The notes beneath the pieces were generated by a model. It saw only the letters and a program-made list of their open reading frames with translations. It did no database searches and was not told the DNA's origin. A program made the position numbers and the translations under genes. Positions 3,524 to 14,882 of a DNA stretch of 64,000 nt are shown here, piece after piece; the stretch's first letter is position 1; every line of letters starts with the position of its first letter. Source of the stretch: Deltaproteobacteria bacterium (GTDB lineage Bacteria; Desulfobacterota; GWC2-55-46; DRQE01); contig JAJRSM010000044.1 of NCBI GenBank assembly GCA_024278765.1, positions 5,972 through 69,971 on the forward strand. Direction: 5' to 3'.

Positions 3524-4464
3524 TGGTGGGGTTTTGGGCTGATAAGAAGGTTGTAGTCACAGGTGGTGCGGGTTTTTTAGGCTCTTTTGTCGTCGAAAAA
3601 CTAAAGGCACGTGGCTGCGCTAATATCTTCGTACCACGTAGTAAAGATTACGATCTAGTAGATATGGGGGCGGTAAGGCGGCTCTACGCAGATACAACAC
3701 CGGATATTGTTATTCATCTCGCTGCCGTTGTCGGAGGGATCGGGGCTAATAAGGCCAACCCGGGTAAATTTTATTATGATAACCTGATGATGGGCACGCA
3801 GATGATCGAGGTAGGTCGGCAGGTGGGACTAGGTAAATTCGTCGCCATCGGGACTATCTGTGCCTACCCGAAGTTAACACCTGTGCCCTTTAAAGAGAAA
3901 GATCTATGGAACGGCTACCCCGAAGAAACCAACGCTCCGTACGGGTTGGCTAAGAAGATGCTGCTGGTGCAGAGTCAAGCTTACCGGGCGCAATACGGCT
4001 TTAACTCTATATACCTGCTACCGGTAAATTTGTATGGCCCGGGAGATAACTTTGACGTGGAGTCTTCGCATGTGATCCCAGCGTTAATCAGGAAATGCAT
4101 AGAGGCCAAAGAGAGCGGAGCCGGTAGTATAACGGTCTGGGGCACGGGCAGGCCAACGCGTGAATTCTTGTATGTTGAGGACGCGGCAGAGGGGATCTTG
4201 CTTGCCGCAGAGAAGTATAATAAGCCAGAGCCGGTAAATCTTGGTTCTAGCTGTGAGATATCTATTGATAATCTAGTTGAACTAATCGCCGCAAAGACTT
4301 GTTTTAAAGGTGAAATTATTTGGGATTCAGCAAAGCCTGATGGCCAGCCCAGAAGGCTGCTTGATACATCAAAGGCAGAGCTTGAGTTTGGTTTTAAGGC
4401 CGCTACGGGCCTTCGAGAGGGCCTTGATGCAACAATAGCGTGGTTTAAGGAAGAGGGACGTTGA
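3520..4464 (+). CDS. fcl: GDP-L-fucose synthase (GDP-4-keto-6-deoxymannose 3,5-epimerase/4-reductase).
   Basis: The SDR Rossmann motif [12 protein letters not shown], a length of about 314 aa and its position immediately after gmd support the call. Confidence 0.88.
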
Positions 4465-5969
4465 TAGATTTTATAGAGAGACTCTCGGTCAGGCAGAAGC
4501 TCTTCCTTATTGTTGGTGCGGGCCTGCTGTTAAGGCTCTATGCAGTCTTTGCTGCCGTTACTATCTCGATGGATAGCATAAGTTTCCTGAGACTTGCCGA
4601 GAGTTTTGCTTCAGGTGATATCGGCGGAATCATGGATACGTACCGCCCTCCTCTGTACCCCTTTTTTATCAGTATCTTCTCCTATATATTCGGTAATATA
4701 GAGTTATCTGCCCGTCTTGTCTCTATGGTCTTTGGTACTCTCACCATACTGTTCAGCTTCTACTTTGCTCGACTTTTGTTTAATGAAAAAATAGGTATTA
4801 TCACAGCTCTTTTTGTGGCGTTTCATCCCTACCTTGTGCGGTATTCCGGCGATGCGCTTACGGAAACTCTGTATCATTTCATTTTACTTCTTGCCACCTT
4901 ACTATCGTTTAAAGGTGTGATGAGCAGAAGTCTGTTGACTACCTTCCTTGCCGGAGTTGTTATTGCCTTTGCTTATATGACAAAGCCGGGCGCTGTGGTT
5001 ATCTTGCCGCTTTTGGTAACTATGATTGTCTTTTATGATCTTCGAAGGATAGGTGAGGATTGGCAAAAAAGAATCTTGCTGCTTATTGCGGCCTGCGGGG
5101 TATTTTTATTAGTCGGCATGCCATACTTTGTATATCTGTACCAACAGTATGGTGAGATCACCATTACAAAAAAATATGATATAGGTATAGTACTGCTTAC
5201 TGTGAAGAATATATTTACCACAGGGGTCTACGCAGAGGATCTGGTCAAGTATCTTCCAGAGTCTATCAGCTATCCCTTACTGTTAATCTTCTTGTGGGGT
5301 ATTATAGGTATTAAGTATGGTGCCGCAAAATACAAAAAAAATATATTTTCTCGGCAAAGTGACGCCATTATCACCAGGAATATGCTCTGGCTACTACTGA
5401 TTTTGTTCTATTACTGCATAGTTTATACGCTTATAGGCGCAAGGAGGCGTTACTTTCTACACATGATGCCATTTGGTCTGGCCTTTGCGGCGATAGGATT
5501 TTGTTATTTCAGGGAGTACCTGAGTGTTAGATTTGAAGCAAGGAAAGGGCTTATTATCGCTGTTGTTTTGCTTTGTATTATAACCGTTGCACAGCTTCCA
5601 AAGGGGCTTAAACCCGTAAAGGCGCATCGATTACCTGAAAAACTTGCCGGGCAGTGGTTCTTGAAGCACAAAGGGGCTGGTATTAAGATGATTAGCAATA
5701 AGCCGGTGGTAGTCTATTACTCTAAAGGTGTTTATGTGGACTATGAGCGTCCGGAGGATTCAATGGCCACGGTAATTAAGTATGCAAAGAAGAATGAAGT
5801 GGGCTATATCGCAGGATATCCGGCTAAGCTGCCCAAAAAGATACCAGATTTTCATAAGAATAAGGGCAAGTATCTGGAGGTGGTCGAGTCTTTTCAGGGT
5901 AATCCTAAAAATAAGGTCTTTGTAATATACAGAATAATTCCAGATAAATTTGGTCAGACCTTAAAATAA
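4461..5969 (+). CDS. GT-C fold membrane glycosyltransferase (GT39/ArnT/PMT-like), paralog 1.
   Basis: The polytopic N-terminal half carries the RLxS..FG.L...F motif region and is followed by a soluble C-terminal domain; the protein resembles ORFs 9533 and 12785. Confidence 0.6.
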
Positions 5970-5998
5970 TTGACATTTCGCTGAATTGTTTTAATATA
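5970..5998 (+). promoter_or_regulatory. Candidate sigma70 promoter, TTGACA with a TAATAT-like -10, upstream of the oxidoreductase gene.
   Basis: TTGACA lies at 5970-5975 with an AT-rich -10-like hexamer about 17 nt downstream. Confidence 0.35.
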
Positions 5999-6184
5999 TC
6001 CAATGTTATTTATCGTAGACTCTATGTTGTGAAATGTGGGGTTTTTTAAGGATATGGGTTGTATCTAATGCTTTTTTCTTTGAGTTTATACGGAGAAAAA
6101 GGCGCAGCGAGCCGGATTTACAGGTAAGCCATTCATTAAATAACTGACGTAGTTAAATCAATATACATCGGAGACCTTCTTAAT

Positions 6185-12791: not shown

Positions 12792-14140
12792 GGATTAAAG
12801 ATAATATTTTTACCGGTAAGGTGCTGGTACTACTCTTGTTCGCCTTTTTAGTTCGTTTGTTTATGTTGTATTTTTTAGGGGATACCCTTAACTTTGATTT
12901 GGGACATATTGCAAATCTAGAAAATTTACTGGCCGGAAACGGACTTTCGGATACGCTGGTCTCAGCTGACGGTACAACTACCTATCTGCCAACCGCAAGA
13001 GACCTGCCGTTACACGGATTGATGATAGCCGCCACATGGGTCTTGAGTGGTACGCGCAGCTTTATCTTTATCCAGCTGGTACAGATGGCGATCGATAGCT
13101 TTATGCTGGTGCTGGTCTATCTTATCGCCAGGGACCTTTTTGGAGAGAGGGTTGGTTTTTTATCGGCGATTTTATTTGCCTTCTACCTGCCTGAAGCATG
13201 GCTCTCCATCTATGTCAGAAGGGATATATGGGTTTCCTTTGCAACTATTTCTCCATTTTACGTTTGCCTGAAATATATCCGTACCGAGCAAATAAAGTAT
13301 GTAGTTTTAGCTGGAATAACACTTGGTTTGGGGGTTTACTTTAGATCCACCATGTTTTTTTTCCCTGTTGCTATTGGCGTAGCCATGTTGCTCTTTATCC
13401 GCTTTAGAAAGGCCGTTATAGCTGCTGTTATTATGACCGGCATTATAGTTGTATTTTTATCACCCTGGGCTATCAGGAACTATATGGTCTTTGACAGGTT
13501 CGTGCCTACCGAGGTCAACTTTAATCAATCGATCTGGGAGGGCTTTGGTGAGTTTCCAAACCCAGTGGGTGCGGTCAACAATGATGAGGCGACCTTCGAG
13601 CAGATGAGAAAAGAGGGTTTTACCGGTAGGCCTGCTTCATTTGAATATGAGGATTTTCTTGCTCCGAAGGTTAAGAAGGTTTTAAAGGAGCATAAGCTTT
13701 GGTACATAGGGACTATGTTTAGAAGGATTCCCAGGGCACTCCTTGTAAATCGCGTACCATGGGGAGTCTTTCAGGCTCGCACTGACCAGGTGGGTTTTCA
13801 TAAGATATACGCGCACAATAATCAAGAAAAAAGTGTGATAACCTACGCAAAGTATATGCTGAAGGTAAATCCAGGCTTCCTTATTACCAAAATTTTTGAT
13901 ACAGTTATCTTTTTCCTTGCTCTTTTTGGGTTGATTCTAGCACTTAAGGGGCGCAGTTCCAGGCGTAACGCCTTACTATTGACGGCAGCCCCGCTATACT
14001 TTATTATGATACTTATTCCAATTAGAATGGAGGGCAGGTATATTGTTGCTGTCCACTGGACTTTCTTGATATTTATGAGTTTTGCCCTTATTTATCTGAA
14101 AGACAGGTTATTGAGTTATCGCAGCAGGAGAAGGCTTTAG
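12785..14140 (+). CDS. GT-C fold membrane glycosyltransferase (GT39/ArnT-like), paralog 3.
   Basis: The polytopic N-terminus (DxxRDIWVS region) is followed by a C-terminal soluble domain and then TM segments. Confidence 0.55.
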   Translation: MVGIKDNIFTGKVLVLLLFAFLVRLFMLYFLGDTLNFDLGHIANLENLLAGNGLSDTLVSADGTTTYLPTARDLPLHGLMIAATWVLSGTRSFIFIQLVQMAIDSFMLVLVYLIARDLFGERVGFLSAILFAFYLPEAWLSIYVRRDIWVSFATISPFYVCLKYIRTEQIKYVVLAGITLGLGVYFRSTMFFFPVAIGVAMLLFIRFRKAVIAAVIMTGIIVVFLSPWAIRNYMVFDRFVPTEVNFNQSIWEGFGEFPNPVGAVNNDEATFEQMRKEGFTGRPASFEYEDFLAPKVKKVLKEHKLWYIGTMFRRIPRALLVNRVPWGVFQARTDQVGFHKIYAHNNQEKSVITYAKYMLKVNPGFLITKIFDTVIFFLALFGLILALKGRSSRRNALLLTAAPLYFIMILIPIRMEGRYIVAVHWTFLIFMSFALIYLKDRLLSYRSRRRL

Positions 14141-14141
14141 T

Positions 14142-14882
14142 ATGATTGAAAAGAAGAAGTGTAAGGTTGCCGTAGTGATGCCGGCATACAATGCTGCGCA
14201 GACTCTGGTGCGTACCTACAAGGCTATTCCTAAAGGGGTGGTAGATGAGATACTCTTGGTTGACGATAGCAGTCACGATGATACGGTAGAAATCGCCAAG
14301 CTCCTTGGTATAAAGACCATTGTTCATGAAAAAAATGTCGGGTATGGGGGTAATCAAAAGACCTGCTATACTCATGCCCTGGATGATCAATCCGATATTA
14401 TTATAATGCTGCATCCTGATTATCAGTATGATCCCAGCATTATACCTGACCTGATAAAGCCGATAAAAGAAGGCAGGGCCGATGTGGTCTTTGCATCCCG
14501 TATGCTTGGTAATCCGCTAAAGGGAGGAATGCCTCTTTATAAGTTTGTCGCCAATAAGTGTCTTACCAAGTTCCAGAATGTAGTATTTGGCACTAATTAT
14601 TCGGAGTTTCATACAGGATACAGGGCATTTAGCAGCAAGCTTTTGAGGTCATTGTCTTATCATACAAACTCAAATAACTTTATCTTTGATAATGAAATGA
14701 TAGCCCAGATAGTTATGAAGGGCTTTAAGATATATGAGATCCCTGTCAAGACCCGTTACGCTACGGATTCTTCATCGACAAGTTTTAAGACAAGCGTCAT
14801 CTATGGTCTGGGTATTTTAAAGGTCTGTGCAAGGTATTTTTTCCATAAGTATGGGATTAAAAAAGATTCTCTGTTTAATTAA
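14142..14882 (+). CDS. GT2 glycosyltransferase, polyprenyl-phosphate sugar synthase-like (GtrB/ArnC/DPM1-like).
   Basis: VAVVMPAYNAAQTL with a DDSSHDDT (DxD) motif fits the family, and the gene directly follows a GT-C gene. Confidence 0.75.
   Translation: MIEKKKCKVAVVMPAYNAAQTLVRTYKAIPKGVVDEILLVDDSSHDDTVEIAKLLGIKTIVHEKNVGYGGNQKTCYTHALDDQSDIIIMLHPDYQYDPSIIPDLIKPIKEGRADVVFASRMLGNPLKGGMPLYKFVANKCLTKFQNVVFGTNYSEFHTGYRAFSSKLLRSLSYHTNSNNFIFDNEMIAQIVMKGFKIYEIPVKTRYATDSSSTSFKTSVIYGLGILKVCARYFFHKYGIKKDSLFN

Follow-up and report, generated by a model that had tools for sequence, protein, structure and literature searches.

A rare, divergent family among three GT-C glycosyltransferases of a deltaproteobacterial glycan-biosynthesis cluster

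Organization of the cluster

The 64-kb stretch of deltaproteobacterial DNA that was analyzed (the window) contains a glycan-biosynthesis cluster of ∼40 kb (2360–42058) whose genes all lie in the same direction, and the open reading frames in question make up its 5′ third. The cluster starts with a gmd and fcl-like pair (2360–4464), comprising a GDP-mannose 4,6-dehydratase gene (2360–3523, + strand; Pfam GDP_Man_Dehyd, E = 2.1e-145) and an fcl-like epimerase/reductase gene (3520–4464, +). These are followed by the gene for GT-C enzyme A (4461–5969, +; 502 aa, PMT_2) and by three genes for soluble enzymes of sugar-precursor synthesis, identified by Pfam and NCBIfam matches: a GFO/IDH/MocA oxidoreductase (6185–7288, +), a NeuB-type synthase fused to a cupin (7321–8868, +), and a HAD phosphatase (8837–9505, +). 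Next come GT-C enzyme B (9533–11209, +; 558 aa, or 545 aa in the NCBI call), a membrane protein of the Pfam Wzy_C family (11181–12791, +; 536 aa), GT-C enzyme C (12785–14140, +; 451 aa, PMT_2), and a soluble, DPM1/PpgS-like GT2 enzyme (14142–14882, +; 246 aa, PF00535).

Downstream lie a SAM methyltransferase with a single C-terminal hydrophobic helix (14925–15890, +; 321 aa, Methyltransf_23, E = 2.8e-27; TM candidate 282–298) and, directly before a second soluble, DPM1-like GT2 enzyme (21082–21837, +; 251 aa, PF00535), a CDP-hexose-type sugar pathway (15960–21082). The cluster also encodes a candidate Wzx-type flippase (24008–25306, +; Pfam Polysacc_synt_3, E = 1.2e-7, 31.7 bits against a cut-off of 23) and an initiating polyprenyl-phosphate sugar-1-phosphate transferase (Bac_transf, 36563–37981, +; Pfam E = 5.4e-68). 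Beyond Bac_transf and the Wzx-like protein, domain searches identified WecG, GT4, and many sugar-nucleotide enzymes.

The open reading frames that the initial annotation had placed at 4461, 9533, 11181, 12785, 14142, and 21082 are all present at these coordinates on the + strand. Gene junctions are tight, with overlaps of 4 nt between fcl and A and of 7 nt between the Wzy_C gene and C, and with 1 nt between C and the GT2 gene that was said to follow it directly. The claim that the GT-C genes are interleaved with a ligase gene holds for B, Wzy_C, and C but not for A and B, which are separated by the three soluble enzyme genes. The presence of BamB and AMIN-AmiC in the flank indicates an outer membrane; the host is an uncultivated diderm bacterium. 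The setting is chromosomal, and no phage relatives or phage context were found for the locus. A search of the cluster for an Und-P-sugar flippase of the GtrA, SMR, or MATE type found none. The window contains one Wzy_C gene and encodes neither Wzz nor a further candidate polymerase or ligase.

The three GT-C enzymes

A, B, and C are all GT-C enzymes of the PMT_2/ArnT-like clan, in agreement with the initial annotation. A and C score above the Pfam gathering cut-off for PMT_2 (26.1 bits), at 64.8 bits (E = 1.4e-17) and 46.2 bits (E = 7.4e-12), respectively. A consists of a PMT_2 core and a C-terminal soluble domain of ∼115 aa, and D38, E135, and R330 are invariant in its family (14 sequences), with R62-P-P-L nearly so. 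The best solved relative of the A-family profile is ArnT (5ezm, E = 7.4e-5), in which D55 is aligned with D38 of A and KPPF (K85-PP) with RPPL. In C, the PMT_2 core is accompanied by an outer loop of ∼125 aa between TM7 and TM8, and D38, P75, P227, R231, N232, and R418 are conserved in its family. An AF2 model of C (pLDDT 85, pTM 0.89) has a GT-C fold. When this model, the one covered by the structural comparison, was searched against the PDB with Foldseek, the 37 best matches were all GT-C enzymes (including AglB, STT3, PglB, Pmt4, ArnT, Emb, and ALG9). The oligosaccharyltransferases AglB, STT3, and PglB were the closest, ahead of the ArnT/Gtr enzymes, at an overlap of only ∼0.5 (TMq) and ∼0.3 (TMt). 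C is without the STT3 C-terminal domain and WWDYG motif region and does not match PF02516.

B has no Pfam or NCBIfam match of its own, so its GT-C nature was established indirectly. Among 1.84e9 proteins searched, its family has only 7 representatives at E < 1e-30, of which 4 match PMT_2 (best E = 2.5e-11), and the weak tail of this search consists of PMT_2/PMT proteins. Comparison by hhalign gave 96.9% against the A family and 95.2% against the C family, in profile alignments that cover only the N-terminal ∼190 columns. The B family keeps a DEGxY motif of the ArnT type, in which D68-E69 is invariant in all 7 members and which reads DEGAY in B. The predicted topology of B has ∼11 TM segments, a first outer loop of 60–75 aa containing DEGAY, and a C-terminal outer domain of ∼130 aa, with the DE loop and this domain on the side that has fewer K+R residues (18 in, 9 out). 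A structure model of B alone has a pLDDT of 42.6. Based on these sequence comparisons, B is a member of a rare, divergent, and previously unlabelled family of the PMT_2 clan.

Each enzyme keeps a conserved acidic residue directly behind TM1: D38 of A is invariant among 14 sequences and D68-E69 of B among 7, and D38 of C occurs in at least 90% of 20. Since this first-loop motif is kept and the fold modelled for C is that of a GT-C, the GT-C assignment stands. The description of the three enzymes as paralogous does not fit the comparisons among them: BLASTP gave one 38-residue match between A and C (E = 6e-4) and no match between A and B or between B and C, and homology is seen only at the profile level, where the A and C families align at E = 7.7e-49 with 13% identity. 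At the level of sequence, A, B, and C are three deeply diverged families and not close paralogues. Their placement in GT39 (PMT proper) was likewise not borne out, as none of the three matches PF02366 or MIR, and the term ArnT-like applies to the clan but not to the equivalog, because none reaches an ArnT score.

The GT2 enzymes and the Wzy_C protein

Both GT2 enzymes match PF00535 (E = 1.5e-23 for that at 14142) and are candidate polyprenyl-phosphate sugar synthases by similarity, as had been proposed, with top matches to DPMS, ArnC, GtrB, AglJ, and PpgS. For the enzyme at 14142, the best NCBIfam models are AglJ, PpgS, and a Dol-P-hexose transferase, all below cut-off. It aligns with residues 2–216 of the 226 in the PpgS model (E = 6.7e-16), but with 58 bits (cut-off 370) it is not a PpgS equivalog. 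Its best PDB match is the Pyrococcus furiosus DPMS (5mlz, E = 3.4e-9), with ArnC also found, and it has HPD at the position of the DPMS DAD. The enzyme at 21082 matches 5mlz over residues 4–229 (E = 1.9e-22), as well as ArnC and GtrB (5ekp). The two are only 20% identical to each other, score far under every NCBIfam equivalog cut-off, and have weak matches to PgfS, which is part of a streptococcal adhesin-glycosylation system. Neither has a hydrophobic or transmembrane segment, so that the label GtrB-like is apt for the catalytic domain but not for the transmembrane hairpin.

The protein encoded at 11181 matches Wzy_C (PF04932) with 50.9 bits (E = 1.8e-13; cut-off 31.7), and its translation probably begins downstream of 11181. 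A large outer loop of ∼100 aa ends in a conserved AHNDF motif, and 4 orthologues all share H433-N-D-F, R96, R180, and R296. These features resemble those of WaaL, Wzy, and PglL, from which the protein differs in an insertion that is specific to its lineage and includes a 13-aa tandem duplication, and in having no PDB or NCBIfam match. Its earlier designation as a WaaL-like ligase is not supported beyond membership in the Wzy_C family, as its sequence is compatible with a WaaL-type ligase, a Wzy polymerase, or a PglL-type O-oligosaccharyltransferase alike.

Related systems and proposed function

The genes for B, the methyltransferase, C, and the Wzy_C protein occur together in three lineages: the window, a CG11 deltaproteobacterial MAG (L001), and a third locus (L007). 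C–Wzy_C adjacency is kept in all three, and methyltransferase orthologues (43% identical) adjoin the C homologues in L001 and L007. The NeuB-cupin protein is 55% identical to its L001 orthologue, and the order gmd-fcl-A is kept in L008–L011. In the related loci the GT-C genes stay with Wzy_C and Wzx and not with lipid A genes. The GT2 enzymes are not orthologous between these loci, which thus show no constant pairs of GT2 and GT-C enzymes.

The cluster had been compared with Gtr, the three-component O-antigen glucosylation system of Shigella and Salmonella phages (GtrA flippase, GtrB Und-P-Glc synthase, and a serotype-specific Gtr GT-C; PMC11127046). The two share a DPM1/GtrB/ArnC-clade GT2 directly beside a GT-C (14142 and 12785 here) and a presumed logic in which a lipid-monophosphate donor provides the sugar that is transferred, in the periplasm, to a glycan made by Wzx/Wzy (PMC11127046). 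However, the cluster does not mirror a Gtr module: it has no GtrA gene and no phage context, its GT2 enzymes lack the two C-terminal TM helices of GtrB, the GT-C gene precedes the GT2 gene, and its three GT-C enzymes are from different families. Comparable in gene make-up, rather than by any shown sequence-level orthology, is the side-chain system of the Streptococcus mutans SCC, in which SccN and SccP are GT-A Und-P-Glc synthases and SccM and SccQ are GT-C enzymes (bioRxiv 10.1101/2024.05.09.593426). Both clusters combine two (here candidate) lipid-P-sugar synthases with several GT-C enzymes, and no dedicated flippase has been identified in either (10.1101/2024.05.09.593426). Unlike the diderm, Wzx/Wzy_C-type cluster described here, SCC is Gram-positive and decorates an ABC transporter-dependent rhamnan. 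A TagF-like glycerophosphotransferase-family gene (26438) is also found within the present cluster. Given SCC and the loci with multiple GT-C enzymes described for Xanthomonas and Bacillus (PMC11127046), the occurrence of several GT-C enzymes together with several Und-P-sugar synthases in one polysaccharide locus is not unusual, contrary to the initial annotation. PpgS (Rv3631)/Rv3779 and DPM1/PMT are known pairs in which the polyprenyl-P sugar synthase is TM-less and its partner is a GT-C. The GT2 at 14142, also TM-less and next to a PMT_2-type GT-C, matches the short PpgS model nearly end to end; unlike PMT, A, B, and C are without the GT39-defining PMT and MIR domains.

The likeliest explanation, which we favor with moderate confidence, is that the chromosomal cluster makes an Und-PP-linked glycan of the O-antigen type, to which, after flipping by Wzx, side-chain sugars are added in the periplasm, with A, B, and C probably acting at the outer surface of the inner membrane. 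The cluster pathways would supply GDP-6-deoxyhexose, a NeuB-type ulosonic acid, a CDP-hexose derivative, heptose, and ManNAc. On the cytoplasmic side, a few transferases (Bac_transf, WecG, GT4, TagF-like) would assemble a lipid-linked unit for flipping by the Wzx-like protein. The soluble GT2 enzymes (14142, 21082) would load single sugars onto polyprenyl phosphate, and from these putative donors, once translocated, A, B, and C, each using its conserved first-loop Asp, would transfer the sugars to the glycan at the periplasmic face. The Wzy_C protein may then polymerise the unit or ligate it to the final acceptor. Several observations count against this explanation: there are three GT-C enzymes and only two candidate donor synthases; the cluster has no Und-P-sugar flippase gene; the GT2 enzymes are TM-less, far below equivalog cut-offs, and non-orthologous across loci, with HPD for DAD at 14142; the closest folds of C are AglB, STT3, and PglB; and the B model has a low pLDDT (42.6).

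General protein O-glycosylation is an unlikely alternative. Here, the Wzy_C protein would be a PglL/PilO-type O-oligosaccharyltransferase that moves a flipped Und-PP-oligosaccharide to periplasmic or surface proteins, and at least one GT-C enzyme would act PMT-like on proteins or decorate the protein-bound glycan. The single Wzy_C gene alongside a Wzx-like flippase and an initiating transferase, the lack of Wzz or a second polymerase/ligase in the window, the membership of protein O-mannosyltransferases in the PMT_2 clan, the DE dipeptide of B (typical of PMTs), and the weak PgfS matches are consistent with it. However, PF02366 and MIR are absent from A, B, and C, the Wzy_C protein has no NCBIfam or PDB match that would link it to PglL, the cluster has no obvious target protein gene, and Wzz and WaaL could sit beyond the window.

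A slightly poorer candidate is decoration of lipid A or the inner core in the style of ArnT, Rgt, or Lgm, whereby the GT-C enzymes would move sugars from Und-P-sugars to these acceptors and not to a repeating glycan. The alignment of the A family with ArnT, the resemblance of DEGAY in B to DEGRY in ArnT, the matches of both GT2 enzymes to ArnC structures, and the ArnC-sized GT2 of L007, which adjoins a formyltransferase as ArnC does ArnA, point in this direction. Yet the ArnC/ArnT aminoarabinose system of lipid A (GT2 and GT83) differs in that no ArnA/B/D/E/F set is present here, no protein scores as an ArnT, ArnC, or other Arn equivalog, and the GT2 enzymes are TM-less. The genes also sit inside a Wzx/Wzy_C-type repeat-unit cluster, with which they are translationally coupled, and the related loci likewise keep them with Wzy_C and Wzx. 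Least probable of all is that the GT2 enzymes are ordinary cytoplasmic transferases that extend the Und-PP-linked unit while at least one GT-C uses a lipid-PP-oligosaccharide, as a polymerase, ligase, or oligosaccharyltransferase-like partner of the Wzy_C protein: the TM-less, sub-cut-off, and unconserved GT2 enzymes, the top folds of C, and its adjacency to Wzy_C in three lineages would fit, but C (451 aa) lacks the STT3 C-terminal domain and WWDYG region, overlaps those folds poorly, and does not match PF02516, and all top sequence matches of both GT2 enzymes are polyprenyl-monophosphate sugar synthases.

Under the favored explanation, periplasmic side-chain glycosylation, the system would be ordinary in kind, since periplasmic sugar addition by GT-C enzymes is a known strategy; what is new is the rare B family.

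Gene content and surroundings of the glycan cluster

Pfam and NCBIfam scans identify positions 2360-42058 of the plus strand as a glycan-biosynthesis cluster, which consists of one long, co-directional run of genes. The run opens with gmd (2360) and an fcl-like reductase (3520), followed by membrane protein A (4461), a GFO/IDH/MocA oxidoreductase (6185), a NeuB-type synthase fused to a cupin (7321), a HAD phosphatase (8837), membrane protein B (9533), a Wzy_C-family protein (11181), membrane protein C (12785), a GT2 (14142), a methyltransferase (14925), a CDP-hexose-type pathway (15960-21082), and a second GT2 (21082). 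Radical-SAM enzymes and methyltransferases lie 3' of the second GT2, and the cluster continues with a Wzx-like flippase (24008), a TagF-like transferase (26438), a cytidylyltransferase (28040), a GT4 (28776), WecG (33565), a UDP-GlcNAc 2-epimerase (35396), a Bac_transf initiating transferase (36563), and a heptose-type pathway (39172-42058). Each open reading frame in the initial annotation was recovered exactly where it had been placed. The fcl-like gene and the gene for A overlap by 4 nt, the Wzy_C and C genes overlap by 7 nt, and C and the first GT2 are separated by 1 nt, which points to co-translation of these genes as one unit.

The flanks of the cluster contain housekeeping genes (MarC and an amino-acid permease upstream; a XerC/D-like recombinase, GlnD, AMIN-AmiC, MutS, GH57, BamB, and ATP-citrate lyase downstream), and the presence of BamB and an AMIN amidase indicates that the host is a diderm. 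There is no sign of a prophage context among the flanking genes in the window. The ATP-citrate lyase-like subunits (59400-63451, minus strand; Citrate_bind, ATP-grasp_2, CoA_binding, and Succ_CoA_lig domains) hint at a reverse-TCA autotroph as the host.

A dif-like site, ATGTCGCATAA-TGAATA-TTATGTCAAGT, is present on the plus strand at 42170-42197, within the 316 nt that separate 42058 from 42374 (E. coli dif is GGTGCGCATAA-TGTATA-TTATGTTAAAT). Its core, CGCATAATGNATATTATGTNAA, occurs once in the window when 0 copies are expected by chance, a count obtained with a pattern that was picked after the sequence had been seen. Next to the site is the gene for a XerC/D-type recombinase (minus strand, 42374-43285), and the site coincides with a convergence in gene orientation and with a peak in cumulative GC skew. 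Based on these features, the glycan cluster probably abuts the replication terminus.

Several other properties of the cluster were recorded. The G+C content drops to 0.40-0.42 in the stretch that contains B, Wzy_C, and C (10001-14000) and to 0.36-0.38 in that with the methyltransferase and Wzx-like genes (22001-26000), compared with ∼0.47-0.50 in adjacent sugar-nucleotide genes; dips of this kind are typical of mosaic O-antigen-type clusters. The NeuB-family synthase, which lies in the 6185-9505 block between the GFO/IDH/MocA oxidoreductase and the HAD phosphatase, has a C-terminal cupin in the position where a SAF domain is usual, and its scores of 131 bits (NeuB) and 125 bits (PseI) lie well below the equivalog cut-offs of 400 and 340, respectively. 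It may make an unusual ulosonic acid. The cluster also encodes a radical-SAM/SPASM enzyme (21884-23026) and, among the genes at 29896-31407 and 31404-33572, a B12-binding radical-SAM enzyme together with a 722-aa protein in which a zinc-type alcohol dehydrogenase is fused to a GFO/IDH/MocA oxidoreductase. The radical-SAM pair and the 722-aa fusion suggest that sugars are modified in unusual ways, for example by C-methylation or epimerisation.

Three membrane proteins assigned to the GT-C type

Two of the three membrane proteins that the initial annotation had described as GT-C transferases are recognized by a known domain model. A (502 aa) and C (451 aa) score 64.8 and 46.2 bits, respectively, against PMT_2 (Pfam PF13231), above its gathering cut-off of 26.1 bits. 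An AlphaFold2 model of C, built with 19 homologues as the alignment, has a pLDDT of 85 and a pTM of 0.89, and when this model was compared with the PDB by Foldseek, ranks 1-37 were all GT-C enzymes (TMq ∼0.4-0.5), among them AglB, STT3, PglB, Pmt4, ArnT, Pmt1/2, EmbA/B/C, ALG9, and DPY19. The profile of the A family gave a partial match to ArnT (5ezm) over ∼210 columns (E = 7.4e-5). In this alignment, the invariant D38 of A falls on ArnT D55, the catalytic-loop aspartate, and R62-P-P-L falls on ArnT K85-P-P-F, in which K85 is the lysine that binds undecaprenyl phosphate. Single-sequence phmmer searches of the PDB with A, B, C, or the Wzy_C protein returned zero matches.

B (558 aa) has zero Pfam or NCBIfam matches, its PMT_2 score of 12.2 bits (E = 0.21) being below the cut-off, and it looked like an orphan when a word-indexed homologue search returned B alone. 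When 1.84 billion representatives were then searched exhaustively with phmmer, only 7 proteins reached E < 1e-30. Four of the seven B-family members match PMT_2 (best E = 2.5e-11), and the weak tail of the same search aligns to B residues ∼30-270, with 9 of the 10 tail proteins tested being PMT_2 or PMT proteins. When family profiles were compared by hhalign, the B family matched the A family at 96.9% (E = 1.3e-10, 194 columns) and the C family at 95.2% (E = 2.7e-8). In addition, D68-E69 is invariant in all seven B-family sequences, and the first-loop motif in which it lies, D68-E69-G-x-Y, is the same as D55-E-G-R-Y of ArnT. Hydropathy analysis predicts 11 transmembrane candidates in B, with the N terminus on the K/R-rich side (18 versus 9) and the DE loop, like an acidic C-terminal domain of ∼130 aa, on the opposite side. 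Because PMT_2-matching relatives, profile links to A and C, the DEGxY motif, and the predicted topology all point the same way, we accept B as a divergent GT-C on sequence grounds. The B-family profile matched nothing in the PDB. A genome scan with B alone gave no match, missing even the source genome; a narrower B alignment found only a Deltaproteobacteria MAG (CG11), and a metagenome scan for the family contributed a further equivalent locus and a distant relative.

The initial annotation had proposed an acidic motif in the first extracytoplasmic loop as one check of the GT-C assignment, and this motif is present in all three proteins. In addition to D68-E69 of B, D38 of A is invariant in 14 of 14 sequences at the start of this loop, and D38 of C, which lies 4 residues beyond the TM1 helix of the model, is conserved in at least 90% of 20 sequences. 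Hydropathy topology was clean for B only; in A and C the short TM2 was missed, and for these two the result is not decisive. The second proposed check, a GT-C fold, came out positively for C from its AlphaFold2 model and the Foldseek comparison; for B, only a single-sequence AlphaFold2 model made with no alignment was obtained, and its pLDDT of 42.6 makes it unusable.

A, B, and C had also been called paralogous, a term that applies only in its loosest sense. BLASTP of A against C gave a single 38-residue match (E = 6e-4), and the two pairs that involve B gave no match, which rules out a recent single-gene duplication as their origin. At the profile level, the A and C families align over 377 columns (E = 7.7e-49) with 13% identity, and closer relatives of A, B, and C were each found elsewhere, separately. 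From these comparisons, A, B, and C are best described as representing three distinct, ancient branches of the PMT_2 clan that were assembled in one cluster, rather than as duplicates made in place.

Candidate donor synthases, the Wzy_C protein, and the proposed pathway

Both GT2s (14142, 246 aa; 21082, 251 aa) contain PF00535. Their best NCBIfam matches are AglJ, PpgS, Dol-P-hexose transferase, PgfS, and ArnC, all far below the equivalog cut-offs, and their closest solved relatives are the P. furiosus Dol-P-Man synthase (DPMS), ArnC, and GtrB. All of the top NCBIfam and PDB matches belong to the clade of lipid-monophosphate sugar synthases (DPM1/GtrB/ArnC/PpgS). The GT2 at 21082 aligns with DPMS over residues 4-229 (E = 1.9e-22) and that at 14142 at E = 3.4e-9, and the match to GtrB (5ekp) is confined to the first ∼128 residues. 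No hydrophobic window above threshold was found in either protein, and they are closer in type to the TM-less DPM1/PpgS enzymes than to GtrB and ArnC. Identity between the two GT2s is only 20%; the metal-binding D-A-D of P. furiosus DPMS is retained in the GT2 at 21082, and the aligned position is H-P-D in the GT2 at 14142 (residues ∼88-96).

The Wzy_C protein (11181-12791, 536 aa) passes the PF04932 threshold with 50.9 bits, and it has an outer loop of ∼100 residues (∼333-449) that ends in an invariant AHNDF and contains an invariant H433; arginines of the protein are invariant as well. It had been called a WaaL-like ligase. The Wzy_C domain, the large loop, and the His and Arg residues are indeed present, but these features are common to WaaL, Wzy, and PglL, so identity as a ligase is not established, and by sequence the protein would be one of these three types. 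No PDB or NCBIfam match was found for its family, including searches with the family profile and with a relaxed NCBIfam threshold. It is the sole such gene in the window, which contains no Wzz. Within this gene, a 39-bp tandem duplication (12234-12313, 2.1 copies, 95% match) encodes EKKMDVLLKFVQV / EKKMDIPLKFVQV, inside an outer-loop insertion that is absent from three orthologues.

The best-supported reading of the cluster is that a Wzx-flipped, Und-PP-linked glycan is glycosylated outside the cytoplasm. In this scheme, the TM-less GT2s would load sugars onto polyprenyl phosphate, the three GT-Cs would move these polyprenyl-phosphate sugars to the glycan at the outer face, and the Wzy_C protein would polymerise or ligate the product. 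There are three GT-Cs and two synthase candidates in the cluster, no dedicated lipid-sugar flippase gene is present among the open reading frames of 2200-42200, and the pairing of GT2 and GT-C is not conserved among related loci, whose GT2s are not orthologous to those of the window.

Other donors, acceptors, or systems were considered against the same data. One of the GT-Cs may use lipid-PP-oligosaccharide donors; in favor of this, AglB, STT3, and PglB are among the structural matches of C, and against it, the top matches of both GT2s are synthases of lipid-monophosphate sugars. The pathway may instead serve protein O-glycosylation, with the Wzy_C protein acting as a PglL, a type to which its domain, loop, and conserved residues are as well suited as to WaaL or Wzy. 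Membership in the GT39 protein O-mannosyltransferases (PMTs), for which we required PF02366, MIR in loop 5, and a 4-TM module at the C terminus, fails: none of PF02366, MIR, and PMT_4TMC matches any of the three membrane proteins at E ≤ 0.01 in Pfam, and, unlike GT39 PMTs, these proteins of 451-558 aa have no MIR-sized β-trefoil loop. The cluster may also decorate lipid A or core in an ArnT- or Rgt-like manner, as the partial match of A to ArnT and the DEGxY motif of B might suggest; membership in GT83 ArnT fails as well, since the ArnT model is absent among the NCBIfam matches of the cluster proteins, and the window contains none of the arnABDEF genes.

The proposed likeness to Gtr modules did not extend to membership either. 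GtrA has no match in any Pfam scan of the cluster, the 2200-42200 region has no unassigned free-standing plus-strand open reading frame of at least 60 aa left for a GtrA-type small flippase, and GtrB has a C-terminal transmembrane hairpin, whereas the GT2s of the window have no hydrophobic window. Pattern scans of IMG/VR and tblastn searches of 50,697 phage records gave no phage or viral relative for A, B, or C. A prophage Gtr cassette is ruled out by the flanking genes and this absence of phage relatives, the nearby tyrosine recombinase being XerC/D-like and located beside a dif-like site.

The arrangement had been considered unusual, which it is not when compared with known multi-GT-C loci (PMC11127046; 10.1101/2024.05.09.593426). 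Kelly et al. (PMC11127046) reviewed and extended the Gtr and other three-component systems and noted loci with multiple GT-Cs. The S. mutans SCC locus encodes the Und-P-Glc synthases SccN and SccP and the GT-Cs SccM and SccQ, with a third GT-C inferred (10.1101/2024.05.09.593426). The extracytoplasmic glycosylation proposed for the cluster follows the same logic as Gtr and S. mutans SCC. Overall, the initial annotation captured a largely real arrangement and drew a reasonable functional analogy, but over-described it.

A recurring set of four genes

The neighboring genes were compared in two other lineages that have homologues of C. In the CG11 MAG (PCXA01000009; loci L001, L002, and L004), the C homologue P0023 lies in the order GFO, NeuB+cupin (55% identical to that of the window), a 533-aa B orthologue (36%, E = 1e-104), methyltransferase (43%), C homologue (49%), and Wzy_C homologue (23%, E = 1e-25). 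In a third lineage (L007), a B orthologue (P0034), a methyltransferase (43%), a C homologue (P0025), and a Wzy_C homologue are followed by Wzx, a TagF-like gene, a GT9, and a WecG/Bac_transf fusion, and this locus also contains a dTDP-sugar/formyltransferase pathway and a 310-aa GT2. In all three lineages inspected for their co-occurrence, the genes for B, the methyltransferase, C, and Wzy_C stay together as a conserved set, alongside differing sugar-precursor pathways.

In the methyltransferase of the window (14925-15890), a CxxC...CxxC motif lies in the N-terminal part and one hydrophobic helix in the C-terminal part (residues 282-298), and the 43%-identical orthologues of this protein adjoin C homologues in both other lineages. 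In the CG11 MAG, the C and Wzy_C homologues are followed by a 644-667-aa membrane protein (L001, 13561-15495) that has only a weak DUF6798 match and no BLASTP similarity to A; this protein may be a further GT-C-like component. Homologues of A are always preceded by gmd and fcl. A self-contained gmd-fcl-A module was ruled out, as one such locus (L008) continues with the GFO oxidoreductase directly after the A homologue, as in the window; contigs of this kind show no more than that related organisms share the beginning of this type of cluster.

It is possible, though we consider it unlikely, that the four genes for B, the methyltransferase with its membrane anchor, C, and the Wzy_C protein are a mobile module for periplasmic assembly or attachment, with a role beyond side-chain decoration, and that B founds a new CAZy-level GT-C family (∼7 representatives in 1.84 billion). 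Such a module would travel between clusters with different sugar-precursor pathways; in the window and the CG11 MAG the four genes occur with a NeuB+cupin ulosonic acid pathway, and in L007 with one for a dTDP-formamido-sugar. It might, for example, build or cap a distal glycan outside the cytoplasm from lipid-monophosphate donors, a process that would resemble mycobacterial arabinan/LAM assembly, here in a diderm and with a Wzy_C partner.

What is new here is limited to the rare, unlabelled GT-C family of B and the recurring four-gene membrane set. If the reading of extracytoplasmic glycosylation is right, the cluster is one more case of glycan tailoring outside the cytoplasm by GT-Cs that use lipid-phosphate-sugar donors, a route that is by now recognized as widespread; the cluster opens no long-standing question and would not greatly surprise specialists in O-antigen or cell-wall glycans. 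Both additions are of modest value: the B family, rare and unannotated, with its ArnT-like DEGxY motif, is missed by current Pfam and NCBIfam models, and the set of B, methyltransferase, C, and Wzy_C could mark periplasmic glycan modification in uncultivated bacteria.
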